Source: Synechococcus sp. (GTDB lineage Bacteria > Cyanobacteriota > Cyanobacteriia > Thermostichales > PCC-7336). From it: DNA of 51,374 nt. The notes beneath the pieces are model-generated. The model was not told where the DNA came from and did not search any database. It saw only the letters and a program-made list of their open reading frames with translations. Each line of letters starts with the position of its first letter. The stretch's first letter is position 1. The position numbers were made by a program, and so were the translations under genes. Positions 18,681 through 43,733 of this stretch are shown one piece after another. The stretch spans positions 1 to 51,374 of the forward strand of contig JBFRWD010000032.1 of NCBI GenBank assembly GCA_051439425.1, read 5' to 3'.

Positions 18681-20660
18681 ATGAATAAGTCTCAGACCTT
18701 TCTTGTTGAGCAAATTGTCGGCGGATTGTTTGAAGAATTTACGACATTCGAAAACCTCGGTGATGTTTTGATTGGTGATAAGGGGAATAACAATCTTCAA
18801 GGAAGTGATAAAGACGACATCTTCTTCGCGGGAAGTGGTGATGATACTGCTTTAGGCGGCGCTGGAAATGATGTCATTTTTGCTGGAAGTGGCAATGATA
18901 TTGTTATTGGCCAAACCGGCGATGATGTCGCCTTTTTAGGGAAGGGTGATGACCGCTTTATCTGGAACAACGGCGATGGTAGTGACTTCATCAACGGTGG
19001 TAAAGGCTTTGATATTACCCAAGTGAACGGTGCCGATGGTGCTGGCGATGAGTTTGACTTGCGTGAAGCTCATGGTCAGGCCATTTTCAATCGTCTCAAT
19101 CTGGGGCTCTTTACCCTAACCAACGAAAAGATCGAGCAGTTTGAGATTAATGGCCAGGGCGGTGATGACTCTTTGACAGTTGGCGATCTTAGCGGCAGCG
19201 GAGTTCAAAAAGTTGTCTTCAAAGGCGGCAAGGGAAATGATGTGCTGGACGCTAGAGAAAGCTCGACCACCCTTAAGGCTGTTGGGGGTAAAGGCGATGA
19301 TTTGTTGCTGGGCGGCTCCGCCGAAGATAAGTTTTTTGCGGGTTCTGGAGATGACACTGTTGTCGGTCAGCGGGGAGATGATACTGCCTTTTTAGGGAAA
19401 GGTGATGACCGCTTCATCTGGAACAACGGCGATGGCAGTGACTTCATCAACGGTGGTAAAGGCTTTGATACTACCCAAGTGAACGGTGCCGATGGTGCTG
19501 GCGATGAGTTTGACTTGCGTCAATCTGGCAGACAAGCCATTTTTAATCGTCTCAATCTGGGGCTCTTTACCCTGACCAATAGAAAGATCGAACAGTTTGA
19601 AATCAACGGCCAAGGTGGTGACGACTCGCTGACAGTAGGCGATCTCAGCCGCAGCGATGTTGAAAAAGTTGTCTTCTCGGGCGGCAAAGGCAACGATGTG
19701 TTGGACGCGAGAGAAAGCTCTACTACCCTTGAGGCTTTTGGGGGTGATGGCGACGATTTGCTGCTGGGTGGCTCCGCCGAAGATACGTTTTTTGCAGGCA
19801 GTGGCAATGACATCGTTGTCGGTCAGCGGGGAAACGATACCGCCTTTCTGGAAGATGGTGACGACCGCTTCATTTGGAACAATGGCGATGGCAGTGACTT
19901 CATCAACGGTGGCACAGGTTTTGATGTCACCCAAGTGAACGGTGCCGATGGTGCTGGCGATGAGTTTGACTTGCGCGCAGTGGATGGTCAGGCCATTTTT
20001 AATCGATTCAATCTAGGGCTATTTACCCTAACTAACGAAGAGATTGAACAGTTTGAAATTAATGGCCAGGGCGGTAATGACTCATTTACGGTGGGTGACC
20101 TCAGCGGCAGCGGGGTTCAATCCGTTGTTTTCTCGGGTGGCGACGGCAATGATTTTCTGAATGGGAGTGGTACGGCTACACCCATTACTGCTGATGGGGG
20201 TGATGGTGACGACATTCTCATCGGTGGCAGCGGTGACGATATTCTCATTGGCGGCGGCGGTGCTGATTTGTTGATTGGCGGTGGCGGTAATGACATTCTG
20301 ATTGGCGGGAGTGGGGCCAATTTATTTGGCTTTGATACTGGCGCTGCCTTTAATGCTGCAGATATTGGTACAAATGCGATCCAAAACTTTGGGAGCAATG
20401 ACAGCATTGTGCTGGATACCACGGTCTTTACCGAGTTGACCAGCGCAATTGGTGGGGGGCTATCTGCCAGCGAGTTCGCCATTGTCGATAGTGCAGAAGA
20501 AGCCGCCTTGAGCGATGCCCTAATTGTCTACGGCGCAAGTACGGGTGAACTGTATTACAACTCGAACGGTGCTGAAGCAGGGTTTGGAAGCGGCTCCAAG
20601 TTTGCCACCATCGAAGGCGCACCTGTGCTTGATGCTGACAGCTTTGTTATTCAGGCATAA
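18681..20660 (+). CDS. RTX/hemolysin-type calcium-binding secreted protein with three ~152-aa repeats
   Basis: AAGGAG RBS, many GGxGxD nonapeptides, a 456-bp period (DRFIWNNG codons at 18951, 19407, 19863) and a T1SS-type C-terminus (LYYNSNG...FATIEG). Confidence 0.9.
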   Translation: MNKSQTFLVEQIVGGLFEEFTTFENLGDVLIGDKGNNNLQGSDKDDIFFAGSGDDTALGGAGNDVIFAGSGNDIVIGQTGDDVAFLGKGDDRFIWNNGDGSDFINGGKGFDITQVNGADGAGDEFDLREAHGQAIFNRLNLGLFTLTNEKIEQFEINGQGGDDSLTVGDLSGSGVQKVVFKGGKGNDVLDARESSTTLKAVGGKGDDLLLGGSAEDKFFAGSGDDTVVGQRGDDTAFLGKGDDRFIWNNGDGSDFINGGKGFDTTQVNGADGAGDEFDLRQSGRQAIFNRLNLGLFTLTNRKIEQFEINGQGGDDSLTVGDLSRSDVEKVVFSGGKGNDVLDARESSTTLEAFGGDGDDLLLGGSAEDTFFAGSGNDIVVGQRGNDTAFLEDGDDRFIWNNGDGSDFINGGTGFDVTQVNGADGAGDEFDLRAVDGQAIFNRFNLGLFTLTNEEIEQFEINGQGGNDSFTVGDLSGSGVQSVVFSGGDGNDFLNGSGTATPITADGGDGDDILIGGSGDDILIGGGGADLLIGGGGNDILIGGSGANLFGFDTGAAFNAADIGTNAIQNFGSNDSIVLDTTVFTELTSAIGGGLSASEFAIVDSAEEAALSDALIVYGASTGELYYNSNGAEAGFGSGSKFATIEGAPVLDADSFVIQA

Positions 20661-20746: not shown

Positions 20747-21140
20747 CCCATTTCAGTCACTAACTATTGTCGACAGGAGAAAATCTCATGCCTGTTCAAT
20801 CTGAATGTCACTAACGGTGCAGCAGCTCAGCAAGCATCATCCGCAATGCGATCGGTGGAGTCAACTACATCGACTTAGGTGATTGTAGGTCAGACCATTT
20901 GAATGCTTGAGTGTGAGTCTGAGCCAGGTTTCAAGAGTTTTTGAAAACTAAAATCGCCCAATTGACGAACTGAATCATAAGTTTCCCGGCACGTTTAAGT
21001 ATGCCGTTCTGAAATCAAACGGCATTCCCAAAATTGCAGACTTGCAGTTATCTATCACTAGTCTTTTGGTAAGAAAGGCGTTGATTTATGACTCCTGATT
21101 TGCAAACGAAATTTTAGTTTTGGTAGGGAGGTCGAAGTCA

Positions 21141-22613
21141 ATGAACCTCAGTTTTGATAGTGTTCTGTCGGTATCGCCAGCAACAATAGTGAGTTGGATG
21201 GTTGGAGTCGTTATTTTAAGATTGACGATCGCTCGACTGCTTCCAAAGACTAAGTCCGAACATACGGCTTCGACGTTTGAGCGACTGTTAAACAGCTTCC
21301 AAATTTGGGCGTTGAAGCATCCCAACGCTGTCTTCAGCCGATTGGTGCTACCAATTATCACTCTCGTCGAAGGAGTAATGGCCAATTTTCCGACCTATCT
21401 CGATGCCAAACGACTGGCATTGGGGTCAAGTTTTTGCTGTGCGGGGCAGGTGGTAATAGGCGACTTTAACGCACTCAAAACAGCGCTTACATCTCCCCAG
21501 GCGCGGACTTGGCGACTGGGAACATCTCCACTCGATGCTCATTTCTCCCCCAATCTGGATGTAGGGGGACGCAACGTTTTTCTCCTATCACTCTCCGATG
21601 TTGGTGCAGGTGGAGCTGGCGATCGCGAGGTGTTTAGACAGGCGCTAGAGAACTACACTCTCAGTGCGGCCTCAAAAGAACGACAGCTCGACGCCACAGC
21701 TCTGAAACTACTCGATCGCTTGGCTGCCGATTACGCTGAAATGCCTCACGGTCCGGGAGATGTCTTTTTCACCGACAACCACCGCGGGTGGATGGGCTTC
21801 CTAGTGCGATACATTCACTACGTGATGCTGGGGATTGACCCAGCAGACTCCGCGACAATAGAGATACTGACCGATCTGCATTACACCCGACGAGGCACGG
21901 TGCATTACTTTGCCGGTATCGGTCGGTTGTTTCGATGGTTGAATATTCGCGGTCACCGTCACATTTCCCAGCTCATCGAGCAGGCGGCAACGATCTACGA
22001 GCAATCGCCAGCTCTGGCCGATTTCCCCGCAACACCGGACGGGGCTGAGGGTATGACCCGACGAGAGTTGGCGAAATTGCTGACGGCCATTCTCAGTGTT
22101 GCGGGTCTGCAGGGGCCTCTGCACCTGGGGTATACGGCGATGGGGTTTCGGCCCCTGCCTGCCTATAAAGGTCAGCATACGGCCGAGATCGATCCCGTAC
22201 AGTATTGGGACCGTCTCGATCTCGACGATCGCGAGGGCGTACGGCGGTTCGTTCTAGAATGTGCCCGAATTTGGGCCCCAGTGTCTGCTACGCACCGCGT
22301 TGCGACAGAGCCGTTCACCACCACAATCTCCGGTCAAGAGCAGACGTTTCCTGCCGGAACGCTGGTTCTGATCCCGATGAGTTTGGGATTACTGGACAGC
22401 AGCTTTTGGGGGCCGACGACCTACGAATTTGATGCTCAGCGCGAGAATCTTTGCCCCTATCACATGGGCTTTCATTCTGTGGGCGATCGCCATGCTGGGC
22501 GCATGTGCCCCGGAAAAGATCTGGCCCTCGACATGCTGGTTGACGTGCTGATTTCAGTTGGACGGGTTCGCCGTTCCCTTAAGGTTGGCAGCCTTGTAAA
22601 GACTGTCAGGTGA
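21141..22613 (+). CDS. Atypical cytochrome P450
   Basis: ExxR (LECARIWAPV), FPAGTLV, a PERF-equivalent YEFDAQR, heme Cys in RMCPGKDLA and an N-terminal membrane anchor. Confidence 0.8.
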   Translation: MNLSFDSVLSVSPATIVSWMVGVVILRLTIARLLPKTKSEHTASTFERLLNSFQIWALKHPNAVFSRLVLPIITLVEGVMANFPTYLDAKRLALGSSFCCAGQVVIGDFNALKTALTSPQARTWRLGTSPLDAHFSPNLDVGGRNVFLLSLSDVGAGGAGDREVFRQALENYTLSAASKERQLDATALKLLDRLAADYAEMPHGPGDVFFTDNHRGWMGFLVRYIHYVMLGIDPADSATIEILTDLHYTRRGTVHYFAGIGRLFRWLNIRGHRHISQLIEQAATIYEQSPALADFPATPDGAEGMTRRELAKLLTAILSVAGLQGPLHLGYTAMGFRPLPAYKGQHTAEIDPVQYWDRLDLDDREGVRRFVLECARIWAPVSATHRVATEPFTTTISGQEQTFPAGTLVLIPMSLGLLDSSFWGPTTYEFDAQRENLCPYHMGFHSVGDRHAGRMCPGKDLALDMLVDVLISVGRVRRSLKVGSLVKTVR

Positions 22614-22617
22614 CGAA

Positions 22618-22643
22618 TATCGCTCAAGCTTGTCGGTCTTCGC
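22618..22643 (+). repeat. 26-bp direct repeat, copy 1
   Basis: TATCGCTCAAGCTTGTCGGTCTTCGC; 25/26 identical to 24254-24279. Confidence 0.85.
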
Positions 22644-22804
22644 TTGATTCCTTCGGGAATTGCTGCCGAAAGGCCCATAGTCACCGAAGCCGAGAGATCG
22701 CTCCCCCGACTCAGTTTCGGCGATCGCAGACACCTCAGAAGTTGGTGAGAAATGCGAGTAGACTGCTCGTGGGACGGAAGCACACCCTATTTGTCCAATT
22801 ATTC

Positions 22805-23368
22805 ATGGCTCGTATCTCTCCAGATACCTCAGATCGTGAGCTAATTCAAGAATTGAAAGGTGGCAACCAAGCGGCACTGACCCTGCTCTACGATCGCTAC
22901 GGCGGTTTGGTATACACTGTTGCCCTCAAGATTCTCAAACAGCCTACCGAAGCAGAAGACCTCACCCAAGAGATCTTTTTGAGCTTCTGGAAGCAAGATA
23001 AGTTTGACCCCGATCGGTCTGCCCTCAGTACCTATTTGGGCATTTTGACCCGGTCGCGGGCGTTGAATCGCATCTCCAGTCACAGCAGTCGCCAACGCAC
23101 GTTAGAACGGTTACAGGGTCTGTTTTCCTCTCGCAATAGCTCCACTCCACTTGAGGATGCATCGCTTAGCGAACGCAAAGAGATTCTGCAGCGGGCGGTG
23201 GCCCAGCTGTCCGACCAGCAGCGACAAATCTTAGAGATGAATTTCTATCAGGGGCTGAGCCATTCTGAAATTTCTCAGCGGTTAGACATACCGTTGGGCA
23301 CCGTTAAGACAACAGCTCGACGCAGCCTGATTCAACTTCGGGAGCAATTGGGAGAGGCAGTAAGATGA
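22805..23368 (+). CDS. ECF sigma-70 factor (SigK-like)
   Basis: LYDRY, AEDLTQEIF, GLSHSEIS..LDIPLGTVKT; likely start ATG 22805. Confidence 0.9.
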   Translation: MARISPDTSDRELIQELKGGNQAALTLLYDRYGGLVYTVALKILKQPTEAEDLTQEIFLSFWKQDKFDPDRSALSTYLGILTRSRALNRISSHSSRQRTLERLQGLFSSRNSSTPLEDASLSERKEILQRAVAQLSDQQRQILEMNFYQGLSHSEISQRLDIPLGTVKTTARRSLIQLREQLGEAVR

Positions 23369-24156
23369 GCGAACGCGATCGGGTAGCACCATTGTCCGAA
23401 CAGGAGCAATTACTAATTGCAGGATTTGTATTGGGCGATCTGACAGCTGAAGAAACCGCACGGTTAAAGCAGCTGGCAACCTCCAATCCCGAGATTCGCC
23501 GGGAAATTCGGGCCATGCAAACCAGCTTGGAGGTGCTGCCACAGGCCTTACCGCTGGCATCACCTCCTCCCAGTCTGCGTCAACGGATTGTTGCAGCAGC
23601 CCCTGCCGCCGTAGAAGCCATTCCTACCCCTGCAGACATAGCGTCTGTACCGAGTCGCTGGCGATTGACCCGCCGGGCACCAGCACTTCTGAAATTACTT
23701 GCCGCTCTGGGAGGCTTATTCGCCCTGCTATTGGCAGCAGATAACCTCCGACTGCGGTCCCAACTCCAACTGGCAAGAGAGGATAACTTGGAGCAAGTGG
23801 CCACCATTTTGCAACAACCCACTAGTCGCTTAATTTCCCTAGAAGGGGACCAGAATGGGGCGGCTGGCACGCTACTGTTTACCCCGGGAAATTGGAGCGA
23901 AGTGATTGTTTCGCTAGGCAATCTGCCACCGTTACCTCCCGAGCGTATCTATCGCATGTGGCTGTCTTTGGATAATGGCGATGCCATCTTGTGTGGCGAA
24001 TTCAATACGGAATCAGATGGGTCGGTATTTGTCAGGTTTACACCGCCCGAGTCCCCTCCTGAAGGAGTGAAGGCCACCGAGCTTTACGTTACTCAAGAAG
24101 CCCTTGACAGCATCCCTAGACCTCAGGCAGAGCGGGTGATGGAGGGGTTAGTGTGA
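23365..24156 (+). CDS. Anti-sigma factor (RskA type)
   Basis: Overlaps the sigma gene end. N-terminal AGFVLGDL and PPPSLRQRI, one TM segment, and a C-terminal LPPLP...YRMW motif. Confidence 0.85.
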   Translation: MSERDRVAPLSEQEQLLIAGFVLGDLTAEETARLKQLATSNPEIRREIRAMQTSLEVLPQALPLASPPPSLRQRIVAAAPAAVEAIPTPADIASVPSRWRLTRRAPALLKLLAALGGLFALLLAADNLRLRSQLQLAREDNLEQVATILQQPTSRLISLEGDQNGAAGTLLFTPGNWSEVIVSLGNLPPLPPERIYRMWLSLDNGDAILCGEFNTESDGSVFVRFTPPESPPEGVKATELYVTQEALDSIPRPQAERVMEGLV

Positions 24157-25682: not shown

Positions 25683-27200
25683 TTACGCGCTCTGCTGTTC
25701 GATAATATCCATGACCTGCATGTAAGCGGGGTCGTCCGGTTGAATTTCCCGCTCGTCCGATGCCTCACCGCTGTTGGCCAATAGCTTTTTGGCGTTATCC
25801 ACCACAATTGTGTTGGCGATGAGTTCTAGGGCATCGTAGCGATCAATATTGTTGAGGGCATCTACGTACTTACGGCTGTGGGCATGCCGCACCGACTCCT
25901 GACAATAATTGGATAGCTCGCGACTTTCGGTCAACACTTCAAACGCGAACTCTTTCTCTTTTTCGTTGCCGTACAGCCCTTTATATAGCAGGTTAATCAT
26001 GGAAGCGTCGTGATACGGAATTGAGTACTTTTCCTCAATTTGAGGCCAGTACTTCAAGGCTTTTAGTCCTTCCAATGCTCCTTTATTCAGCCCGCGCAAC
26101 TCGCACCACTCTTCAAACTCGGCAATGTCATACGGACAGCGACCGTGTTCTAGCATCCCTTGAGCGAGTGCCTGACCCGCTTGGAAATTGCGGGTGGGCT
26201 TGCCTTGGGCAGGCAGCATCATACTGCCACGCACATCTGCCACGATCGCCGATAGTTGTGTAAACGTGTGGTCGCGCACTCGCTCCGAAAAGCCTCCGGT
26301 ATTGAGTGTGGCTTCGATGCGGGGTACGGCATAGCCCAGCTCGGTCAGGGCGATGGTCTGGCCGCTATAGAGCAGATGGCGATCTTTGCGAGACATGGCG
26401 ACCGTTGCCGCTTGATCCAGACATTGATTCAGCAAAAGGGTTAGCAATGTTGGCAGCATGCCGGAATTTTGCTGATGATATTCGTATCCAAATCCTGCAA
26501 AAATCGATGCCATGTTTTTGGCAGATTTTATATATTGCGCTTCAACATTGTGGATGCCGGGAGATACCTGAATGTTGGGGGAAATTCGATTCAGCATGTG
26601 GGCCCCTAGCAGGGCTGTGAGGGCATCTGGGTGACAGAAATTTGCGGTGAAGCTATCGACCGGATCGCGGAGGGCTCCGTAGCGATGAAAGCCGGAGAAA
26701 AAGGCTAAATCGGTATATTTTTCGCACAATACGTACGATTCATTTCTGGTGCCGTCGTGGTTAAAGCTACCTGCCAAACATGCCAGAACCACATTGGGAC
26801 GATTCAGTTTTTTCTTGAGCGCTCGAGCCTGTTTCCAGTCCTGCTCGATGTATTTACTGTTGGAACTGAGTAGGACAAGGTCGCACTTTTCAATCAAATA
26901 CTGCAACGTATTTTCAGTCGAGACACCATCGTCTTTGTGGCGAGACATGCGCCTCATTTTGGCCACATGTCGGGGGTCCATTCCGTCTAATTCTTGTTGC
27001 GAAAACGCCCCAAACAGGTCTCGTCCGGGGCGAGTGGCTAGTAATAGAGATTTCTCGCTCTTCTGCATCGCTGAGTTATAAGCCAAAGAGGCCGGATACA
27101 ACCCAATGCTGTAAAAGCCTACTTTTGCCCGAGTCAATTGACGAATGCGCTGCTTTAAGCCGCGCTTATCTAACGAACTGCCGAAGAAACTATTTTGCAT
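25683..27200 (-). CDS. Hypothetical protein, putative divergent NAD(P)H-dependent glycerol-3-phosphate dehydrogenase (GpsA-like)
   Basis: Motifs VEAQYIKSAKNMASIFAG, PTRNFQAGQALAQG and ALEGLKAL parallel GpsA C-domain motifs. Lies downstream of ggpS-glpD. Start uncertain (27200 or 27296). Confidence 0.6.
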   Translation of the reverse strand: MQNSFFGSSLDKRGLKQRIRQLTRAKVGFYSIGLYPASLAYNSAMQKSEKSLLLATRPGRDLFGAFSQQELDGMDPRHVAKMRRMSRHKDDGVSTENTLQYLIEKCDLVLLSSNSKYIEQDWKQARALKKKLNRPNVVLACLAGSFNHDGTRNESYVLCEKYTDLAFFSGFHRYGALRDPVDSFTANFCHPDALTALLGAHMLNRISPNIQVSPGIHNVEAQYIKSAKNMASIFAGFGYEYHQQNSGMLPTLLTLLLNQCLDQAATVAMSRKDRHLLYSGQTIALTELGYAVPRIEATLNTGGFSERVRDHTFTQLSAIVADVRGSMMLPAQGKPTRNFQAGQALAQGMLEHGRCPYDIAEFEEWCELRGLNKGALEGLKALKYWPQIEEKYSIPYHDASMINLLYKGLYGNEKEKEFAFEVLTESRELSNYCQESVRHAHSRKYVDALNNIDRYDALELIANTIVVDNAKKLLANSGEASDEREIQPDDPAYMQVMDIIEQQSA

Positions 27201-27488
27201 TACTACCTGAACTGCTGGATGGCGACTGTTGTTGACTCTGTATGCTGAAATAGACCTCACGTTTGAGGGTTGATGGTTTGTGGAGTTTAACCTCATGTGC
27301 GAGCTGTCTCACCATAAAACATGTCTATAGGTCTGTGAAAATAAAGCCTTAAATCTTTGATTTCCTTAACTCTTCATACCTAAGATTCCCAGAACAAAGG
27401 AAATAACTTGGCAGGAATGCGAGGGAGGCAGTATCGACAATGACATGGGTGTATCCGTGCAGATTATCTCCTGACTGCCTCTATGGAC

Positions 27489-29276
27489 TCACCGAGCATC
27501 CTGCATGAGTGGAAGCGTTTCCCGAGCTTCTTGTTCTGTGATGGGGCGATCGCGCGAGGGCAAGTTGTAAAAGTCTGGCACTGAGTTCTCGGTCATGTAC
27601 GTGCGATGCCAGAGAACTTGTTCGCTGCATCGATCGGCGGCCCAACCGCAATGTTCGATTAAGACATCGGCGATCGCTTGGACGGCCTTTATCCCGTAGC
27701 GATCTAACGTCGCTAGCGACGTGCGGCGGTGGGCAATGTCTGTCAGGGTGCGAGCGTACTCGTTCCTGACGGCATAAACGGCTTGTGCTTTAATGTCGGG
27801 CTGCCCCTCAACTAATGGTTCTAAGAGTGCCGGAGCTGTGTCTCCCAATGCTAAGACAGCGGGGGCTTGGCTGCCGTATAGCTGGAAGAGATGGCTAATG
27901 GTCATTGGTGGCACCCGATCGCCGTATTCTTTCAGAGTGCTGGAGACGATAGGGTCGTTGGCAGTAATGGCGCCGGGCAGTGGTGTGTGGGCGGTCTTGC
28001 ACGCTGGAGACGACTGACCCAATTTGGCGTAGACGGCATCGACAATTTCTTGGCTGCTGTTACGGTGGGTCGTTAGCTTGCCCCCCACCAGAGAGAGTAA
28101 GTTGCCGACGCCAGTTTGATTCTCTGTACCTGTGGCTGGGGCGTGGTCGTGCAGGATGTGCTTGCGAGTAATGGCACCTGCCGATTTACCTTCGCGATAC
28201 GGGAGTGGCCGCACGCCCGCATAGGTAAACCGAATATCCGCCCGTTTGAGCTGAGCGGTGGGGATGATGGCATTGGTGGCTTCGATCAGGTAATCGATTT
28301 CGTCCGTATCGGCCTTGACGCGATCGAGATCGCCGCTGTAGCGAAAGTCGGTGGTACCGATGAGAAAGCCCCCCAGCCACGGAACGATAAAGTAGGGGCG
28401 ACCGTCTCGGGCTGCCTCCGTATAGAGAGCGGTGGCCGGTGCTCCAGGAAAGGGATCGACAAAAATATGACTGCCTTTGGTGCCGCCAATCAGACGGCGA
28501 TCGCTGAGAGACTGAGACTGCCCGTTGTGGCGACCGGTTTGGCAGAGGCGATCGAGCCACGGCCCGGTGGTATTCACCACTTGAGTGCTTGGGCCAACAG
28601 GGATTGTTGCCACCTCTTGAGTCAGCACATCGCGGCAGACTATCTCCGAGATGGAGCCGTTCTCCAGCCTTACCTCCGTCACTTCTGTGTAGTTGCAAGT
28701 GGTTGCTCCGGCCGCGTCTGCTGCCTGGACGACTTCCAAGCAGAGTCGCTCGGCATATTCAACCTGGGCGTCGTAATATTGCACCGCCCCTTGCAGTCCT
28801 TCGGTTGCGAGGGAGGGAAATAGACGCTGACATTCCGATTTCCCGAGAACGCGGTGGTTGGGGAGAGATTTGTCGTAGCTGAGCAGGTCATACAGCACCA
28901 TCCCCATGCGCAGCATCGGGGCGCTGTGGGCGCTGTTGCGGTAGAGGGGCAGGGTGAATTCAATGGGTTTGACCAGATGAGGGGCGTTGCGCAACAAGAT
29001 CTCGCGCTCGCGCAGCGATTCCCGCACCAACGGAAACTCTAAGTATTCCAAGTATCTCAGCCCGCCGTGGATCAGGCGTGTAGACCAGCCGGTGGTGCCG
29101 CTACCAAAATCCCCTTTATCCAGGAGTAATGTAGCTAATCCCCGCTGGGCCGCATCGCGAGCGACTCCAGCACCATTGATGCCGCCCCCAATCACAATCA
29201 AGTCGTAACGAGCAGACAGGTTGCTGAGAGGGGATGGAGCGGCTTGCAAATTAGGCATAGGTTTTGTTGAATTCAA
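27489..29276 (-). CDS. glpD: FAD-dependent glycerol-3-phosphate dehydrogenase
   Basis: IGGGINGAGVARDAA, STRLIHGGLRYLE, TKGSH, IGTTD, AGVRPL and GGKLTT motifs; start may be ATG 29258. Confidence 0.93.
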   Translation of the reverse strand: MNSTKPMPNLQAAPSPLSNLSARYDLIVIGGGINGAGVARDAAQRGLATLLLDKGDFGSGTTGWSTRLIHGGLRYLEYLEFPLVRESLREREILLRNAPHLVKPIEFTLPLYRNSAHSAPMLRMGMVLYDLLSYDKSLPNHRVLGKSECQRLFPSLATEGLQGAVQYYDAQVEYAERLCLEVVQAADAAGATTCNYTEVTEVRLENGSISEIVCRDVLTQEVATIPVGPSTQVVNTTGPWLDRLCQTGRHNGQSQSLSDRRLIGGTKGSHIFVDPFPGAPATALYTEAARDGRPYFIVPWLGGFLIGTTDFRYSGDLDRVKADTDEIDYLIEATNAIIPTAQLKRADIRFTYAGVRPLPYREGKSAGAITRKHILHDHAPATGTENQTGVGNLLSLVGGKLTTHRNSSQEIVDAVYAKLGQSSPACKTAHTPLPGAITANDPIVSSTLKEYGDRVPPMTISHLFQLYGSQAPAVLALGDTAPALLEPLVEGQPDIKAQAVYAVRNEYARTLTDIAHRRTSLATLDRYGIKAVQAIADVLIEHCGWAADRCSEQVLWHRTYMTENSVPDFYNLPSRDRPITEQEARETLPLMQDAR

Positions 29277-29446: not shown

Positions 29447-30985
29447 TTAGGCTACTTTGGCCAAGGGCCGATCGGGGACATCCGGATCGTCAGGCGATGC
29501 ATCCGGGCGAGTAATCGCCATCGCTTCGCGGAAGAGGTGGTAGGCCCACTGGTTCACATCGTAACGGCTGACTGCCTTGTACAACGCTCTCATTCGGCGC
29601 TGCTGCTCCTCAAGAGGCATCTCTAGTGCGGTATCTAAACTGTTGTCGAGCGAATTAAAGGAATGAGGGTTGGTGAGGATGGCATCTGGTAATTCCACTG
29701 CCGAGCCGGTAAATTCTGACAGAATTAGTGCCCCACCAGTGCCCTGCTTGGCGGCGATATATTCCTTGGCCACCAAATTCAGGCCGTCGCGCAGCGGTGG
29801 AATAAAGGCCACATCTGCAGCCCGGTAATAGGCCACCATTTCTTCAAACGGGAAGGGCTTGGTGAATAGACGAATGGGCACCCAGTTGAGGGTGGCAAAG
29901 CGCCCGTTGATCTTCCCGGCTAGCTGTTCGATTTCCTGGCGATAGTCGCGGTAGACCCGCATCCCTTCGGCTGCAGCTACCGATACATTCAGCAGAATTA
30001 CCTTGCCATGCAGGTCGGGACGACGCTCTAGCAAGCGCTCGTAGGTCAACAACAGCTCGCGAGTACCTTTGACGTAGTCCACACGTCCGGCGGACAGGAT
30101 TAACTTGCTGTCGCCGATTTCGTCCCGAATACGCTCGACCCGTTGCACGGTTTCGGGTTTCTTGAGGATACTGGCGATCAGCTCTGGGTTGGTGCCCACC
30201 GGAAACGCATCCAGGCGAATGGTGCGATCGCCGTACTGCACCTTAGTGGTCATCTCCCGCTCGGAGAGAGCCGACCCCAGTTTGGTAAATGCATCATCCA
30301 CTTCGCTCCGTTCCAGTACTTCCAGATGGCAGTAGCTACCCGCCGCCGAAATGAAATTCTCGACATAGCGAGGGATATGGAACCCCAGCAGATCGCAGCA
30401 CAGCAAGCTATCGACGATGGATTGACGCCACGGCAAAATACCGAAGATGTCGGCAGATGGGAATGGGGTGTGGTGGAAGAAGGCGATCCGAGCATTGGGC
30501 ATCTTCTGGCGGATGAAATAAGGGGCCAGCCACAGGTTGTAGTCGTGGACCCAAATCAACGCATCATCGGCGGCTTCTTGGCAGGCAGCATCCGCAAATA
30601 ACTGGTTAATATGCTTGAAGTTCTCCCAATTGGCCGAATCGTAGGTGAACTGACTGGGAAACGAGTGCAAGATGGGCCAAAAGGCTTCTTTGGACGTGAT
30701 GTGGTAGAAGTCTTTCACCTGATCGGAGCTGAGGGGGATGCGACGGACAACGCAGTTGTCTCCCTCCCCGACCGACATCGTTTCCTGAAACGTTTCGCGC
30801 TGGCGCTCGGTCACCTGTTTCCAAGCGATCCATGTCCCTTGGTCGGCATTCAAAAAAAAGCTTTTCAGCGTCGGGACAATCCCATTCGGTTTTTTCTTCT
30901 CTTGGTAGACGACCTTTCCATCCTTGCGAACTTCATCGTAAGGTTCACGGTGATAAAGAATCACCAGCGATGATTGATTGCTCAT
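29447..30985 (-). CDS. ggpS: Glucosylglycerol-phosphate synthase (GT20)
   Basis: N-terminal LVILYHREPYDE...PNGIVPTL, WVHDYNL, FFHHTPFP, RVDYVKG and RDGLNLVAKEY motifs. Confidence 0.95.
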   Translation of the reverse strand: MSNQSSLVILYHREPYDEVRKDGKVVYQEKKKPNGIVPTLKSFFLNADQGTWIAWKQVTERQRETFQETMSVGEGDNCVVRRIPLSSDQVKDFYHITSKEAFWPILHSFPSQFTYDSANWENFKHINQLFADAACQEAADDALIWVHDYNLWLAPYFIRQKMPNARIAFFHHTPFPSADIFGILPWRQSIVDSLLCCDLLGFHIPRYVENFISAAGSYCHLEVLERSEVDDAFTKLGSALSEREMTTKVQYGDRTIRLDAFPVGTNPELIASILKKPETVQRVERIRDEIGDSKLILSAGRVDYVKGTRELLLTYERLLERRPDLHGKVILLNVSVAAAEGMRVYRDYRQEIEQLAGKINGRFATLNWVPIRLFTKPFPFEEMVAYYRAADVAFIPPLRDGLNLVAKEYIAAKQGTGGALILSEFTGSAVELPDAILTNPHSFNSLDNSLDTALEMPLEEQQRRMRALYKAVSRYDVNQWAYHLFREAMAITRPDASPDDPDVPDRPLAKVA

Positions 30986-31962: not shown

Positions 31963-34710
31963 TTGAACGTCTTGGACCTTGTACGCACTATTGATGTAGA
32001 TCTAGACTTCCAAGGGAAGCCGTCGAGTTCAACTGAACCCGAAACTCCTACTCGTCTGGATGTCCCTGCTAGATCCAAGTCGTTTGATATCACTCTCGAT
32101 CTTGAGGCGACCCAAGCCCTTGCAAGTTGGGCTGGCAACGTGCTGGCCTCGGCAGAAACGGATTTTTGCAAATCGCAGTTGCTGGCAGCTCGGTTAGGAG
32201 CCCATTGTTGCGAAGACGGTAGTGTTTCGATCGGTTTCTGGGCGCCGGAATTGGCCCCAGGTACGATTCTGCTCAAGGATGCATACTTAGAAGTCTTCAC
32301 GCCGTTAGAAGTCGTCGATTTTTCGCAGGCTCAACAGACGATTCGCTTTCAGCGAGATTGCATTCCATTGCAGCAGCAGGGGGAATACGTTTGGGGGGTG
32401 ATTCGCGGTCTAGTGCTGGGCGATCGCCAACAACTAGGGTCTCTCTATTGGCTGCGCTGTTTGAGCGAAAGTTTGAACCCCAACGAAGTGGGACTGTCGG
32501 TGCGTACGGTGCTGTACGACGTACTGGCGACATCGCTACCGTTTGGAGTATTTGCCCCTGCAGAAGTTTATGATTTCAATCGCTTGCAGCGAGAGCGAGC
32601 GGACTTGGACTATTTCAGAGCATCAGTGTCTGGAGCATTAGTTGCAGAACAGTCAACGCATGCCACCTCTGTTGATGCATCTTCTGATGGCGATGGCCAG
32701 TCCTCTAGCGAAAACGCTGCAGGGTTGGTAGAGGTCATCGAAGACTCTCACTCTGTTGCAGTGCCTCAGGTCGCCCCTCCAACGAACATCCTGCAAGTGC
32801 ACGTCGGTACGGCATCGCCACAAAAAACGATCGCCGGACTCACCGAGCTGTATCGCCGGATTGCTAGCAAGTTAGAGACTGAAACCCCACTCACTCCTGC
32901 CGAACAAAACTTTATTGGCTACGACGCCGTTCAACTGCTGCCTGTGGAGCCGATTGTGGAGCCCCGCGGCCTCGGACATCAATTCTGGGAGCCTCTGAAT
33001 GACGATCCGAGTTTGAGCGCAGTCAATGTGGTGCTGCACAAGCCCGATACCCAGAACTGGGGATATGACATTGTGTTGTCCGGGATGGCCGCCACCAACC
33101 CGTCTCAGTTGGCGTCGCAGCGACCTGACGAACTCGTTGATTTTATCGCCACCTTGCACACGTTTCCTACGGGCCCCATCCAGCTGATATACGACATTGT
33201 TTACGGCCATGCCGACAACCAGGCCCTCGACTTGATTAATGGCCGTTATTTAAAGGGGCCCAATATGTACGGGCAAGATGTGAACCATCAAAACCCAACG
33301 TTGCGGGCAATCTTGCTGGAAATGCAACTCCGGAAGATTAATACATGAGTTGATGGCATCCTGATTGACGGAGCGAAAGATATCAAGTTTTTCAATCCGC
33401 TCTCGGGCCGAGTCGAACACGACGATGGGTACCTGCAGGCGATGGCTGATGTCGAGCAGGATATTGGCGGCTATCGACGCAAGTTGTTTTGCATCTTTGA
33501 GGACGGGCGGCCTTGGCCGGAGGAAGGCTGGGAGCATGCGTCTACCTATATGGATTTGGTGCGTCTCATTCCCGATTGCTATCAATGGGGGCCGCTGATT
33601 TTTGCCCACAATACGCCAGCATTGGATGGGTTTTGGAACTACAAGTGGAACCGGCTTGAGGAGGTTATGCAGCACGGTTCCCACTGGATTACTGGTTGTG
33701 GCAACCACGACACAGTTCGGCGCGGTACGCAGATTGACCCTGAAGCGGGAATTAACTGGAACTTGGGAGACTCCTTATTCGAGGTGTTTAACCAGGCGTA
33801 TGACAACCCGGCCATGACGTTGCTTACGTATGCCTTCATGCCTGGTTTGCCGATGGACTTTATTAACGCTACGGCGCGGGCTCCATGGGGCTTTTTGCGT
33901 AACACGGATGATTATTACGGCGTCAAGGTGGTGTCAGAGGAAGGTGGATTTTTAGAGTGGCAGGTACCTCCCGAGATGTATGCCACCGAGGGGAATTTTG
34001 AGCGGTTAAAGGCGTTTGCGTTCAGTGACTATGACGAGTTGAAGGCATTTATTCGGGCACTACACGAAGCGATTAGCGTAATGGAGTTTAACCTACAGGA
34101 GGTGGCGCGTATTTGCCAGGACTGCTTACCGGGGAACGTGGACTTTTCCACGTGGGAAGACAGTTCGATTCAAAACTATGCCCCCAGTTGTGCCACGTAT
34201 GCTCGTACGTTGGGACGGTTGATTGGTGCTGGTACGTCGGAAGGGTTATCGGGTCTGACGATGGAGCGGTTGCAGGGGTTTGCCAGGGCATTTATGGAAG
34301 ACTGCCACGATATCTGCAATGTCTCGCTGCACGAAGACAAGCTGGACTCGACCCAGACTGACTATAATTTCGCCGTCCGTCAGTTTCGCCGCGATCGCCC
34401 GTGGTTGCGTCATAACCTGCAGGCGAAGGGAGATATCTACGGCTGCTACGGAGACGATGCTGCCACCGTCTTTTACGGTGTGCGTTCCCAGCCATCAGTC
34501 TCGGTTGAGGGCGATCGTGCCCCCGAGCGTGTGGCCATTGTGGCGCATTTGGGGGGAGATCCGATTCAGGTTGACCTCGCCAATTTGCTGCACGTGGAGA
34601 TGGAGGATTGGAGTGTCGCGATCGCGAGTCCGGGGCTGGAGATTGGTAATGGTATGGAGGGGTTTGAGTTGGAGGATTCTGAAGCGGTGGTGTTGGTGGC
34701 GCAGGGGTGA
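31963..34710 (+). pseudogene. gghA: Glucosylglycerol hydrolase (Slr1670/GghA type) interrupted by an in-frame TGA at 33346-33348 (real mutation or sequencing error)
   Basis: ORFs 31963-33348 and 33442-34710 share a frame with no other stop between them. Motifs LGAH, SLPFGVFAPAEVYD, QNWGYD, YGHADN, FEDGRPWP and GCGNHDT. Divergent from ggpS and upstream of glpK. Confidence 0.85.
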
Positions 34711-35009: not shown

Positions 35010-36527
35010 GTGAGTTGTATTCTGGCCCTCGATCTGGGAACTACTGGGAATCGCGCCATTTTATTTGACGCTGACGGACAAGCGATCGCGCAGGCGTATA
35101 AAGAACTCACGCAGTACTATCCTCAGCCGGGGTGGCTGGAGCACGACGCCAGCGAAATTTGGCAGGATACTCAGATCGTCATCCGCGAGGTATTTTCCTC
35201 CTCCGGGATTGACCCTGCGTCCGTAAAGGCGGTGGGGCTGACGGTGCAGCGGGAAACCTGTTTGCTGTGGGATAAGACGACGGGGCAGCCTCTGCATAAA
35301 GCGATTGTTTGGCAGGATCGGCGGACAGCAGAAGCTTGCGATCGCTTGCGGGAAGAGGGTCATGCTCAAGACATTGCAGAGCGGACAGGCTTGGTGTTGG
35401 ATGCCTATTTTTCGGCTTCAAAGCTCAGTTGGCTGCTGGAGGAAGTCAAGCGCACTCAACCCAATCTAGAGTTGGGCAATGTCTTGGCAGGTACGGTAGA
35501 TACCTGGGTGTTGTGGAACCTGACGGGAGGAAAAGTCCACGCGACCGACCACAGCAATGCCAGCCGTACCATGCTGTTTAACTTGGAGACAGGGGATTGG
35601 GATGATTCCTTGCTCTCTCTGTTTGGCATTCCCCGCAATTTTCTACCCAGTATTGAACCCAGTTTGGGGCTGTTCGGGAGGTTTAGCTCGGATATTTGCG
35701 GAGTGGAACTACCTGTTATGGCGGTGTTGGGAGACCAACAGGCGGCGCTGTACGCCCACGGCTGCGATCGCCCCGGATTGATGAAATGCACCTACGGTAC
35801 CGGTTGCTTTTTGGTGTCTCACACGGGGGATGCGATCGCGCGATCGAACAATCAATTGTTGACGACGGTTGCTTGGACTGACAAAACGGCTGGGGATAGA
35901 CAATCTGGATCGCCTTTTCACTCTGGATATGCCCTGGAAGGCAGCATGTTTACCGGCGGTGCTTGCATTCAGTGGCTGCGCGATGGTCTTGGGTTAATCC
36001 AGTCTTCGGCAGAGACCGAAGGAATTTGCCAGTCTGTTCCGGACAGTAACGGAGTGTTTTTCGTTCCGGCCCTCAGTGGTTTGGGGGCTCCCCATTGGGA
36101 TATGACGGCTCGCGGTGCTTATGTTGGCATCACGGGGGGAGCGAAGCGCGAACACATGGTGCGGGCGGTGTTGGAGGCGATCGCCTATCAAGTGTGCGAG
36201 ATTGTGGAGTGCGTCAACAAGGATTTGGGGACTCCGATTCGCCGCTTAAAAGTTGATGGTGGAGCCAGCCAGAACGATTTCTTAATGCAGTTTCAGGCGG
36301 ATGCGGCTGGGATTGAGGTGGAACGTCCGGCGATCGCGGATGCTACCGCTCAGGGGGCGGCGTTTGCAGCAGGCTTGGCGACAGGGTTTTATCCCAGCTA
36401 TGCGGAGATGGTGGCCAAGCGTCAGGTGGATCGGGTGTTTGTTCCCGGGGAAGGGGCCGCACAAGCGCAGAGGAACTTTGGTTTGTGGAAGGAGGCGGTG
36501 AAGCGGGCCAAACACTGGGCGGTGTAA
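35010..36527 (+). CDS. glpK: Glycerol kinase
   Basis: DLGTTG, QRET, WQDRRT, TDHSNASRT, GDQQAA, KCTYGTG and LGAPHW motifs. Confidence 0.95.
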   Translation: MSCILALDLGTTGNRAILFDADGQAIAQAYKELTQYYPQPGWLEHDASEIWQDTQIVIREVFSSSGIDPASVKAVGLTVQRETCLLWDKTTGQPLHKAIVWQDRRTAEACDRLREEGHAQDIAERTGLVLDAYFSASKLSWLLEEVKRTQPNLELGNVLAGTVDTWVLWNLTGGKVHATDHSNASRTMLFNLETGDWDDSLLSLFGIPRNFLPSIEPSLGLFGRFSSDICGVELPVMAVLGDQQAALYAHGCDRPGLMKCTYGTGCFLVSHTGDAIARSNNQLLTTVAWTDKTAGDRQSGSPFHSGYALEGSMFTGGACIQWLRDGLGLIQSSAETEGICQSVPDSNGVFFVPALSGLGAPHWDMTARGAYVGITGGAKREHMVRAVLEAIAYQVCEIVECVNKDLGTPIRRLKVDGGASQNDFLMQFQADAAGIEVERPAIADATAQGAAFAAGLATGFYPSYAEMVAKRQVDRVFVPGEGAAQAQRNFGLWKEAVKRAKHWAV

Positions 36528-37261: not shown

Positions 37262-39019
37262 ATGACTCAACCGTGGTGGAAAGGGGCAACAATCTACGAA
37301 GTCTACATCCGCAGCTTCTTCGACAGTTCCGGAGATGGTGTCGGGGATTTGTACGGCATTGCCTCCAAGTTGCGTTACATCCAGAGATTGGGGGTAGACG
37401 CCATTTGGATTACCCCCTTTTTTCGATCGCCCATGAACGACTTCGGCTACGACGTCGAAGACTACGAGTCAGTGGCGGAAGAATTTGGCAGCATCGATGA
37501 CTTTGACTATCTGGTGCGCAAAGCCCACGAACTGGGCCTCAAGGTATTAATCGATCAAGTCTGGGGGCACACCTCCAGCGCCCACCCCTGGTTTCGCAAA
37601 AGTCGCCGCAGTTGCTTGAATCAGAAAGCAAATTGGTACGTCTGGCATAGTGCTGGAAAAGAGGGCAGTCCTCCTAACAACTGGTTCTCCTTCTTCGGGG
37701 GCCCGGCTTGGGCTTGGGATGCCACCCGCGAGCAATATTACCTGCATCACTTTCTGGACAGCCAACCCGCCCTCAACCTGCACCATCCCGACGTGCTGGA
37801 GGAAATTCTTGAAATCGGTCGTTTCTGGCTCGATCGCGGTGTTGATGGTTTCCGCCTCGATGCCGTGCCCTTCTACATGCACGACCCCACCTTCAAAAAC
37901 AATCCCCCGCGCCCTGCCGGAGAACCTGCACCCGACGGCTTTTCTCCCAACCTGCCATCGGTGCGCCAGGTGCAGAAACACAACATCGCCCACCCCGACT
38001 TGCTGGAAATCCTGACGGAAATTCGCAACGTTACCGACGGCTACGACGATCGCGTTTTGTTAGGGGAGGTGGCTGGGGAACATTCCGTGCAACTGGCCGC
38101 TAAATACACCGGCCCCAGCAAGTTACATATGGCCTATAACTTTGGCTTGCTCAAGACTTGCTCGGAGCCCAGCGAAATTGTGCGGCTAATTCGCACCGCA
38201 TTGAAGGAGGCCCCGAAGTCTGCGCTCGATGACGGACGGATTTGTTGGGCGATCGGTAACCATGATGTGGAGCGAGTGTTTACCCGTTGGGGGGGAGAAA
38301 ATATTGGCGATCGCCACCAGCAAAAAGCCTTTTCGAAGTTGGTGATGGCGGTTCAGCTCACATTACCGGGAGGGGCCTGCATCTACCAGGGCGAAGAATT
38401 GGGCTTACCGCAGGTGGACTTACCCTTTCGCCAGCTCAAAGATCCCTACGATCGCTCTCTGTATCCCAATCACCAAGGGCGGGACGGTTGCCGTACTCCC
38501 ATGCCCTGGAAAAGTGACAGCCAATACGCTGGTTTCACGTCAGCCAAGAAGAAAAAGCCCTGGCTGCCCGTATCGGATGACCATGTGGACTTGGCGGTGG
38601 CCGCGCAGGATCGCGAGGCCAATTTGGGCTCGGTCCTCAATGCCTATCGACGCTTTTTACGCTGGCGCAAGGCCCAACCCGTCCTCAAAGGGGGCAGCAT
38701 CCGCCTGGTTCCAGTCGTCAGTCAAGATGGGGCCGGTGAATCTGTGTTGGCCTACCTGCGCTGTTTGAAAAAAGAAGCGATTTTGCTGATGTTTAACTTC
38801 AGCCCTCGGTCCACGTTTTTGCGTGTTCAGTGCGATGGCCTGCCCCAGCAGTTGATGGCTGATCGCCACCTCAAAGCCATTCGCACCCACGATTTTCATT
38901 GGGTATTTCAGGGGGCTGGCGTCCGCTTAGATCCGTTTGGTCTGGGAATTGTCTCTCTACCGAATTCAGATCATCTGGAGATCCATGCCCAGTGGCAACC
39001 GGAAGATCCTAACAGCTAA
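37262..39019 (+). CDS. GH13 alpha-glucosidase (AglA/oligo-1,6-glucosidase-like)
   Basis: WWKGATIYEVYIRSF, DFGYD, QPALN, catalytic DGFRLDAV, GEV and NHD, YQGEELG and GRDGCRTPMPW. Confidence 0.9.
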   Translation: MTQPWWKGATIYEVYIRSFFDSSGDGVGDLYGIASKLRYIQRLGVDAIWITPFFRSPMNDFGYDVEDYESVAEEFGSIDDFDYLVRKAHELGLKVLIDQVWGHTSSAHPWFRKSRRSCLNQKANWYVWHSAGKEGSPPNNWFSFFGGPAWAWDATREQYYLHHFLDSQPALNLHHPDVLEEILEIGRFWLDRGVDGFRLDAVPFYMHDPTFKNNPPRPAGEPAPDGFSPNLPSVRQVQKHNIAHPDLLEILTEIRNVTDGYDDRVLLGEVAGEHSVQLAAKYTGPSKLHMAYNFGLLKTCSEPSEIVRLIRTALKEAPKSALDDGRICWAIGNHDVERVFTRWGGENIGDRHQQKAFSKLVMAVQLTLPGGACIYQGEELGLPQVDLPFRQLKDPYDRSLYPNHQGRDGCRTPMPWKSDSQYAGFTSAKKKKPWLPVSDDHVDLAVAAQDREANLGSVLNAYRRFLRWRKAQPVLKGGSIRLVPVVSQDGAGESVLAYLRCLKKEAILLMFNFSPRSTFLRVQCDGLPQQLMADRHLKAIRTHDFHWVFQGAGVRLDPFGLGIVSLPNSDHLEIHAQWQPEDPNS

Positions 39020-41637: not shown

Positions 41638-42942
41638 TCATCGAGATTGCTTGCGCTGCTGAGCCGCATGACAGAACACCGAGACGTACTCCCGATAGCC
41701 ACCGGCAAACACTAAATCGAAGCGCAACGGTTCGGCATTGTCTGATGGGTCTCCCGGCCCTTCGCTAGCTACCGGCTGTTCGGGGTTGCTGCGATCGATG
41801 GTCACGGGTTTGCGGTTCTTTAGCTCGCCTCCACTGCTGTCGATGTAAGTGATTACGTTTGGACTCTCGAACTGTTGCCCGATGTCTTGGATGAGCTGGA
41901 GGAAATTGCGATCGCTCCCCCCGCGTCTGACTACGGCTGTCCCGTTCTCCTGCACCACAGAGCTGGTTACCGTATCTCCGACACCGATCAAGACCGGCAT
42001 CAGGGCGGGGTCAAAATTCTCGGTCACTAACTCCAATAATGCTGTGTGTTCTTTCGGTGCTTGGCGGGCAGTAAACCCATCCCCCAACGGAAACTGTCCC
42101 GTGCGCTGGTGATAGTAACGGTTCAGCAGCGCTAACACTCCAGCCTCCTTCACCGCCCCTCTCAGCATGAACTGGAAATCCGTTGTGCCGGAATCGGTGT
42201 CGTTAGCCCAGCGCACCAGCTCTCGACCGCTGTCATCTCGGCCCAAATTGGGGGCCAGATGCAAAAAGAACGAATCTGCAAACCCCAGCTCTGTCGCTTC
42301 ATTCAGCAACGTCTCCATCAAGTCCAGCATGCGCCGCTGCACCTCCAGCCACAGATCGGTGCGATCGCCTAGTGCACTATGGAACGAGTTGAGATTTGCT
42401 GTGGGGGAGGCCATATTGTCCAAGACGCTGGCCTGAATCGCTTCGGCTGCAGCCTCGGGTGTCAGTGCGTCGGGATGAGCCTCCACAAATGCTTGCAAGC
42501 AGGCTTGAATTCGCTGCGGGACCTCCGTTAAGAACGACAGTTCTGCCTCGCTGACACCGGGGTGATCGAGATTGCCATAGCGGTCTTGCCACTGCACTCC
42601 ACCCGCAGCCAAGCCGGGGAGGTACAGCCCTTCGACCTGGGCGAGATCGCTGTCTCCAAATGCTTTATCCACAATTGCGTTCACCCCTCTGACGCCGGTA
42701 TGTTCGCCGTTGGTGAGTACGTAAAAATGGCGATCGAAGGTCTGTGTGGCCAACACATAGTTGGGGTCAATTTGGCGGGTGAGTGGATCGAGTACCAATT
42801 CCATGCACACGCCATCCAAGTCCTGGACGATGAGCACGTTTTCAGTGCGGGAGAGTAGCTGGGGCAGTGTATTGGTTCTAAGGGAATTGGGTGGGGCGTT
42901 CAGCAGGGGATGTAAGGGGGTTGACATCAATGGGGCTGACAT
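41638..42942 (-). CDS. stpA: Glucosylglycerol 3-phosphatase
   Basis: HAD motif QDLDGVCM, VLTNGEH, GLAAGG, GTTDFQF, GVGDTVTS and RRGGSDR. Start at 42942 or 42927. Confidence 0.93.
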   Translation of the reverse strand: MSAPLMSTPLHPLLNAPPNSLRTNTLPQLLSRTENVLIVQDLDGVCMELVLDPLTRQIDPNYVLATQTFDRHFYVLTNGEHTGVRGVNAIVDKAFGDSDLAQVEGLYLPGLAAGGVQWQDRYGNLDHPGVSEAELSFLTEVPQRIQACLQAFVEAHPDALTPEAAAEAIQASVLDNMASPTANLNSFHSALGDRTDLWLEVQRRMLDLMETLLNEATELGFADSFFLHLAPNLGRDDSGRELVRWANDTDSGTTDFQFMLRGAVKEAGVLALLNRYYHQRTGQFPLGDGFTARQAPKEHTALLELVTENFDPALMPVLIGVGDTVTSSVVQENGTAVVRRGGSDRNFLQLIQDIGQQFESPNVITYIDSSGGELKNRKPVTIDRSNPEQPVASEGPGDPSDNAEPLRFDLVFAGGYREYVSVFCHAAQQRKQSR

Positions 42943-43140
42943 AAAAAAGCTCAGGTGCTCGGCTGGTGCTATGCCCTCAACATAACTGATGGCGTTCCGG
43001 GGCTCGTGTGACGGCTCTTGCACCACGACGTTGCAAGAGCCATTTTCCTGATGTCGAAAATACGATAAACGACAACTTGTCAACGCCCTGACCAGTAATG
43101 AAAGTTGATCTGAACGATCGCTTTTTTAATGTCTCCGATT

Positions 43141-43463: not shown

Positions 43464-43733
43464 TGCTGTGAGCCTTACTCAGAAAGACTCGCAGCATCAG
43501 TATGAGTGAATTCGACTTGCCCTCTGCTCTAAAGCTCAAGCCTTCCGTATCAGAGGTAGTTAGGCTGCCTTCTGTTCAGGGGAAAGACAGATTCCAGAGC
43601 AGGAATTTTCAATGTTCCGAGTTTGTCACCTTGTCTCCCTAGTGTGTTGACGTGAACAGGAATCGTCAGTGCAGAGGCACATCTGCGGTGCAGCTTGTTC
43701 CAAACAACATTTGCCGAAATCAGGAGACAAACC

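Follow-up and report, generated by a model that had tools for sequence, protein, structure and literature searches.

The accessible text of PMC6753628 describes a cyanobacterial cluster of genes for glucosylglycerol (GG) metabolism, and its Figure 6 legend counts gpsA among the clustered genes. For human GPD1, the accessible text of PMC9119304 gives Q295, R269, N270, N205, T264, K204, D260 and K120 as active-site residues and puts the cost of the K120A replacement to the human enzyme at 5.3 kcal/mol. In the excerpted text of PMC3369817, EC 1.1.1.94 is unannotated in Prochlorococcus. Four lipid reactions and PgsA consume glycerol-3-phosphate (G3P) in the MED4 model iJC568 (PMC5111396, supplement excerpts); there, with transport closed, the sole open source of G3P is R00841, a reversible phosphatase that has no gene assigned to it. 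In passages of PMC9361551, 2 of 48 marine Synechococcus have gpsA, and an FAD-dependent glpA is taken to be the marine variant.

The locus and its gene model

The window analysed here is a stretch of 51,374 nucleotides from a Synechococcus sp. genome. It contains the gene order ggpS-glpD-ORF on one strand, with a gghA-like gene and glpK divergent from these three and ggpP about 11 kb further on (Table 1). The sequence-only reading had described an ORF of about 505 aa downstream of, and co-oriented with, ggpS and glpD, and the gene model and the profile matches of both neighbours confirm that arrangement. An alternative in-frame ATG lies upstream at 27296 and would give 537 aa; we preferred the 505-aa start at 27200 because homologues are about 503 aa long and cover 93–94% of the longer form. 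The assembly has one copy of the ORF, and a canonical gpsA is also present in the same genome (contig C172). A public-run contig spans 25000–28624 with 0 differences to the window, but this run may be the source sample and the match was therefore not counted as independent support. The promoter/terminator scan counted 8 versus 5.5 ± 2.4 and 11 versus 6.2 ± 2.5 in shuffled sequence, and a search for phage matches returned none.

Table 1. Coordinates of the ORF, its predicted domains and the neighbouring GG-related genes in the window
Feature	Position	Strand	Basis or remark
Divergent GpsA-fold ORF, 505 aa	25683..27200	minus	ATG at 27200, stop at 25683
Rossmann domain of ORF product	about residues 25–215		predicted model
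Helical catalytic domain of ORF product	about residues 218–440		predicted model
C-terminal helical extension of ORF product	about residues 440–505		low model confidence at end
glpD, FAD-dependent G3P dehydrogenase	27489..29276	minus	PF01266 E 8.7e-56, PF16901 E 2.1e-27
ggpS, glucosylglycerol-phosphate synthase	29447..30985	minus	TIGR02398 768 bits, cut-off 569
gghA-like GG hydrolase, one in-frame TGA	31963..34710	plus	PF14872 in both halves
glpK, glycerol kinase	35010..36527	plus	TIGR01311 653 bits, cut-off 590
ggpP (stpA), glucosylglycerol-phosphate phosphatase	41638..43083	minus	tblastn 38% over 411 aa

The glpD product also scores 343 bits against NF008899, slightly below the cut-off of 360. 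The tblastn partner that identifies ggpP is a protein from a Prochlorococcus-like locus (L024) that passes TIGR02399, and translation of ggpP in the window probably begins after the listed TTG. The gene divergent from ggpS is presumably gghA, a name taken from the gene order given in the accessible text of PMC6753628. The TGA at 33346–33348 that splits this gene stands where 16/16 aligned rows (15 genomes) have Gly; it is either genuine, as a nonsense allele, or an error of assembly, and the public-run contigs listed do not span the site.

Several other features of the window were noted. A GH13 alpha-glucosidase-like gene (37262–39019) lies between glpK and ggpP, and at locus L031, too, ggpP has a GH13 gene next to it. 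By eye, glycine-rich repeats of the calcium-binding type (GGxGxD) were recognised in two proteins, at 18681–20660 and 43695–46073; the stretch 21120–24156 has a cytochrome P450-like ORF and, after it, an ECF sigma factor paired with an anti-sigma-like ORF; and a phosphoglucomutase/phosphomannomutase-like ORF lies at 49647–51071.

Predicted fold and active site

Against PF07479 the ORF product scored 14 bits (E 0.058), failing the gathering score of 25. Neither PF01210 nor NCBIfam gave a match, the Pfam gathering scores for GpsA domains were passed by 0/8 relatives tested, and searching PDB sequences with either the protein or the family profile returned nothing useful. An AlphaFold2 model built from 65 sequences (pLDDT 83.5, pTM 0.82) has the Rossmann and helical domains of the G3P dehydrogenase fold over its full length. 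Foldseek returned a G3P dehydrogenase at every match listed through rank 25, and structural re-alignment placed 16 G3P dehydrogenase entries at Z 23.9–28.8, the best being Coxiella GpsA (3k96; Z 28.8, rmsd 3.0, 309 residues), and the next family, ketopantoate reductase, at 14.7. An Atlas feature search also indicates GpsA (0.90–0.91). The likeness to GpsA that had been proposed from motifs is thereby borne out at the level of the predicted fold, by the margin in Z between NAD(P)H G3P dehydrogenases and the next family.

Of 7999 candidates scored in a homologue search, 625 proteins matched at E<=0.001, which, together with a structure match far above that of the next family, shows the ORF to be more than a chance reading frame. 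Named homologues come from Synechococcus sp. PCC 7336, Xenococcaceae, Pleurocapsa and Myxosarcina, and from Prochlorococcus marinus when the L024 homologue was used as query. Nearly all are annotated as hypothetical.

Residues were counted in 236 sequences, namely homologues of at least 440 aa plus the query. Local hhalign comparison of the ORF family with cyanobacterial GpsA was weak (E 0.003–0.15, probability at most 11%), so the residue mapping rests on motifs. In the motif and profile alignment, human R269, N270, N205, T264, K204 and D260 correspond to R337, N338, N229, S326, K228 and D322 of the ORF product, and Q295 and K120 to G374 and G144. Six of the eight human active-site side chains are kept, five identically and Thr as Ser, and each of the six is invariant (236/236). 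They include the catalytic Lys-Asn pair (K228 and N229) and the Asp/Thr/Arg/Asn network equivalent to human D260, T264, R269 and N270, the latter mapped by motif and not by superposition. With the fold match, the invariant K228/N229 and R337/N338 uphold the earlier suggestion of a distinct GpsA-fold family with conserved KN and RN residues. The motifs then quoted all occur in the order given; the register proposed for NVE did not hold, as it lies two residues away from the GpsA position, and in the profile alignment Q222 aligns with the Glu of GpsA xELGGxLKN. The canonical GpsA of the same genome also has Gly at the Q295 position, matching G374.

The Lys of the SxxKG motif (human K120) is missing, a point that the sequence-only reading had passed over: position 144 is Gly in 236/236 sequences, with no Lys at 140–147. 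Three residues before the catalytic K228, position 225 is Lys in 236/236 sequences and Gly in 9/9 canonical GpsA sequences. K225 and G144 are possibly a reciprocal, compensating Lys/Gly swap on the same catalytic-helix face. Three distant relatives (P0140, P0141 and P0246, with 23–30% match and lengths of 676, 662 and 429 aa) keep the strand-5 Lys, with Cys or Gly at 225, a combination that bridges the two states.

The nucleotide loop reads S31-x-G33-x-Y35-P36 in 236/236 sequences. As the sequence-only reading had noted, two glycines of the Rossmann GxGxxG are gone: S31 and P36 replace them and only the central Gly33 is kept. In P0140 and P0141 the loop is N-x-G-x-Y-G. The two arginines that follow strand 2, R57 and R60, do not vary and resemble the W-S-R of canonical cyanobacterial proteins. 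Basic residues at this place may point to NADPH, and the invariant Gly33, Tyr35 and R57/R60 would fit NADPH binding. Because it falls short of the profile cut-off and lacks both the GxGxxG loop and the K120 equivalent, the ORF is to be filed as a separate GpsA-fold family.

Distribution beside GG genes and gpsA

In the phylum sample 14/301 genomes carry the ORF, all in three families: its own (f1), f18 and f19. From the named homologues we infer that f18 is Xenococcaceae-like and that f19 is the Prochlorococcus/marine Synechococcus (picocyanobacterial) family. In a quick tree of 30 of 34 planned rows (without L007, L012, L013 and L099) the f1 sequences are nested among those of f18, a placement that may hint at gene transfer. 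One genome, G466, has two ORF copies (L077 and L081, 95% and 68% identical to the query), and only the first follows glpD.

A related-locus search with the ORF gave three loci. The order ggpS-glpD-ORF recurs in two genomes of the same genus (L082 and L083), and the ORF follows glpD in three relatives of its own family and in L001, although L001 and L077 appear to be one contig. Among 20 ggpS loci, part of the 32 found in other genomes, four have the order ggpS-glpD-gpsA, one has ggpS-gpsA and none has the ORF; the genome of L055 carries it elsewhere. Across the phylum sample the ORF occurs in 6/33 ggpS genomes and is absent from 27/33, and ggpS is missing from 8/14 carriers, a pattern unlike that of a core GG gene, which would be found in ggpS genomes and be absent elsewhere. 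The earlier suggestion that the ORF might be dedicated to GG synthesis is therefore not supported in that form.

A looser tie to GG does stand. Besides the position after glpD in relatives of its own family, all 22 ORF carriers among the 45 f18 genomes have ggpS; here the ORF is present in 22/37 ggpS genomes (15 are without it) and in 0/8 genomes that lack ggpS. A Fisher test on f18 (p 0.004) was not used as evidence because kin in the sample are not independent. GG genes lie near the ORF in only 1/11 f18 loci fetched with wide flanks. At locus L095 (genome G441) a full GG cluster, with ggpS, glpD and ggpP, has the ORF placed between its gghA and glpK genes. In f19, 68/69 carriers have ggpP and 57/69 have the two genes as a divergent pair within 5 kb. 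According to the accessible text of PMC11505929, Prochlorococcus MIT 9303 does not make GG and has ggpP without ggpS. Two side observations concern these genes: arsS (TIGR04167; L024 6554–7483) adjoins ggpP and the ORF in the Prochlorococcus-like locus, and the ggpS match of genome G282 has an internal stop.

The f19 sample comprised 131 genomes that were at least 95% complete, with gpsA scored as PF07479 and glpK at E<=1e-60. The ORF was found in 69, gpsA in 81, both in 19 and neither in 0. All 50 genomes without gpsA, from 15 genera, carry the ORF, but these genomes are kin and may reflect very few independent losses, and kinship inflates the counts. In this family the ORF tracks ggpP (68/69) as tightly as it tracks gpsA loss. 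Both glpD and glpK were found in 44 genomes each, and 24/50 of the gpsA-less genomes have the two together, a pair regarded in PMC9361551 as the alternative used by marine strains. In 26/131 genomes, spread over six genera, gpsA, glpD and glpK were all not found, and all 26 have the ORF. PF01210 was not found above its cut-off in the tested genomes of this group, and the G3P-consuming PlsY is present in 5/5 tested.

In f18, 3/45 genomes lack PF07479 and two of these, G438 and G450, carry the ORF; in G461, an f18 assembly of about 750 contigs, neither the ORF nor PF07479 was found. G346 has the ORF together with a gpsA match that contains an internal stop. An internal stop was also seen in the glpK match of G356. 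The ORF is kept alongside canonical gpsA in the genome described here, in 19 f19 genomes and in 20/22 f18 carriers.

Proposed role and known systems

We consider it likely that the ORF product, as predicted, is an active, non-canonical DHAP reductase whose G3P goes to GG in this genome and to lipids in Prochlorococcus-like ones. The enzyme would reduce DHAP to sn-G3P in an NAD(P)H-dependent reaction. NADPH would bind at the modified S-x-G-x-Y-P loop, with R57/R60 at its 2'-phosphate; R337/N338 would hold the DHAP phosphate; and K228 with a relocated K225, replacing the Lys lost at G144, would form the oxyanion hole beside D322. In this genome the ORF, placed behind ggpS-glpD, would be a second source of G3P for GG besides canonical gpsA. 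The ORF would have replaced gpsA in Prochlorococcus-like genomes and in many marine Synechococcus-like ones and would supply the G3P of their membrane lipids, and in Prochlorococcus-like genomes without gpsA the family is probably the source of the membrane-lipid backbone. We give about even chances to a broader proposal, in which Prochlorococcus and most open-ocean Synechococcus have in this family their essential, so far missing G3P dehydrogenase. It would have arisen in a salt pathway and displaced gpsA, with the oxyanion-hole Lys relocated from the Rossmann domain onto the catalytic helix.

The product could instead be a GpsA-fold oxidoreductase with another substrate, part of a salt module with GgpP, in which the Lys-to-Gly change opens the pocket for some other phosphorylated carbonyl or polyol. 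G144 in every homologue, the extra inserts and C-terminal extension, the co-occurrence and divergent pairing with ggpP and the retention of the ORF beside gpsA in this genome and in f18 and f19 genomes would suit such an enzyme. We nevertheless think it unlikely: the phosphate- and carbonyl-contacting residues are unchanged, the ORF occupies the gpsA gene slot, and 26 genomes would be left with no G3P source found. GG-phosphate, moreover, is glucosylated at C2 and is not oxidisable there.

Less probable again is that shared ancestry accounts for the distribution, the ORF travelling with marine salt genes and gpsA being lost for other reasons, with G3P coming from reverse GlpD or from an unrelated enzyme, for example of the Fe-ADH/glycerol dehydrogenase family. 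The few independent gpsA losses and the co-occurrence of glpD and glpK in nearly half of the gpsA-less genomes (24/50) agree with this, and iJC568 makes its G3P from glycerol through the geneless reversible phosphatase. PF13685 proteins are present in 3/3 gpsA-less genomes tested, but they are also present in 2/2 gpsA-only genomes tested and so do not follow gpsA loss. The 26 genomes without glpD and glpK too, the genomes of 1.6–1.9 Mb that lack ggpS and keep the ORF with its active site intact, and the two f18 genomes that repeat the pattern in another family all argue against it.

The pseudoenzyme also considered in the sequence-only reading would sense G3P/DHAP or NADPH without catalysis and so regulate GG enzymes; the two replaced Rossmann glycines and the missing catalytic Lys speak for it, but we judge it highly improbable because the active site is invariant (six residues, besides the central Gly33) and the ORF is the only G3P-source candidate found in the 26 genomes, and it is also retained where ggpS is absent. 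Least credible is a G3P dehydrogenase that mainly oxidises G3P in GG recycling, as the degradative-side position in G441 might suggest: this is one locus only, GlpD already oxidises G3P, with NAD(P)H the equilibrium lies far towards DHAP reduction, and the ORF is retained in genomes without glpK.

The preferred reading, a DHAP reductase, would make the family one concrete gene candidate for G3P supply in Prochlorococcus. If true, it would correct the metabolic models of the ocean's most abundant phototrophs and give an example from nature of a catalytic lysine that has migrated within a much-studied enzyme; the reaction is in itself probably ordinary chemistry. Speculatively, the ORF might be useful as an extra G3P supply for glucosylglycerol production. 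One JGI cluster of homologues is already labelled glycerol-3-phosphate dehydrogenase in its records. The accessible parts of PMC3468840, PMC7900632, PMC5862535 and PMC12834511 do not mention the family, and no paper naming it was found in a literature search that ran without locus tags, the Cyanorak cluster, subscription papers, 11/21 of the PMC9361551 supplements and the anti-correlation supplement of PMC5862535.

Among known systems, ketopantoate reductase and the beta-hydroxyacid dehydrogenases of the 6PGD-like superfamily share the Rossmann and helical domains (Z 12–15), but their Z-score is about half that of the G3P dehydrogenases, over fewer aligned residues and with a higher rmsd. Genes in the window are arranged as gghA / ggpS-glpD-glpK, like the cyanobacterial GG cluster (GgpS, GgpP, GghA, GlpK and GlpD) in the accessible text of PMC6753628, but the G3P dehydrogenase slot is occupied by a divergent family that most sampled ggpS genomes lack. 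Eukaryotic GPD1 (EC 1.1.1.8; 1x0v, 6e90) and Dunaliella DsGPDH (6iuy) have the same fold (Z about 28); the ORF product keeps 6/8 of the GPD1 active-site residues, has Gly as the equivalents of K120 and Q295, and differs in basic residues after strand 2 that suggest NADPH. Bacterial GpsA (EC 1.1.1.94; PF01210 and PF07479; 3k96, 1z82; archaeal 1txg) shares with it the two-domain fold (Z 26–29), the KN helix, the D-x-x-x-[TS], [ST]RN and EG motifs and, in some cyanobacteria, the same slot after ggpS-glpD. At 11–15% identity to GpsA and below the Pfam cut-offs, the ORF product is nevertheless set apart by its length (about 505 aa against about 310–340 aa, with extra C-terminal helices), its S-x-G-x-Y-P loop, the change of the strand-5 Lys to Gly and the new Lys at K225.
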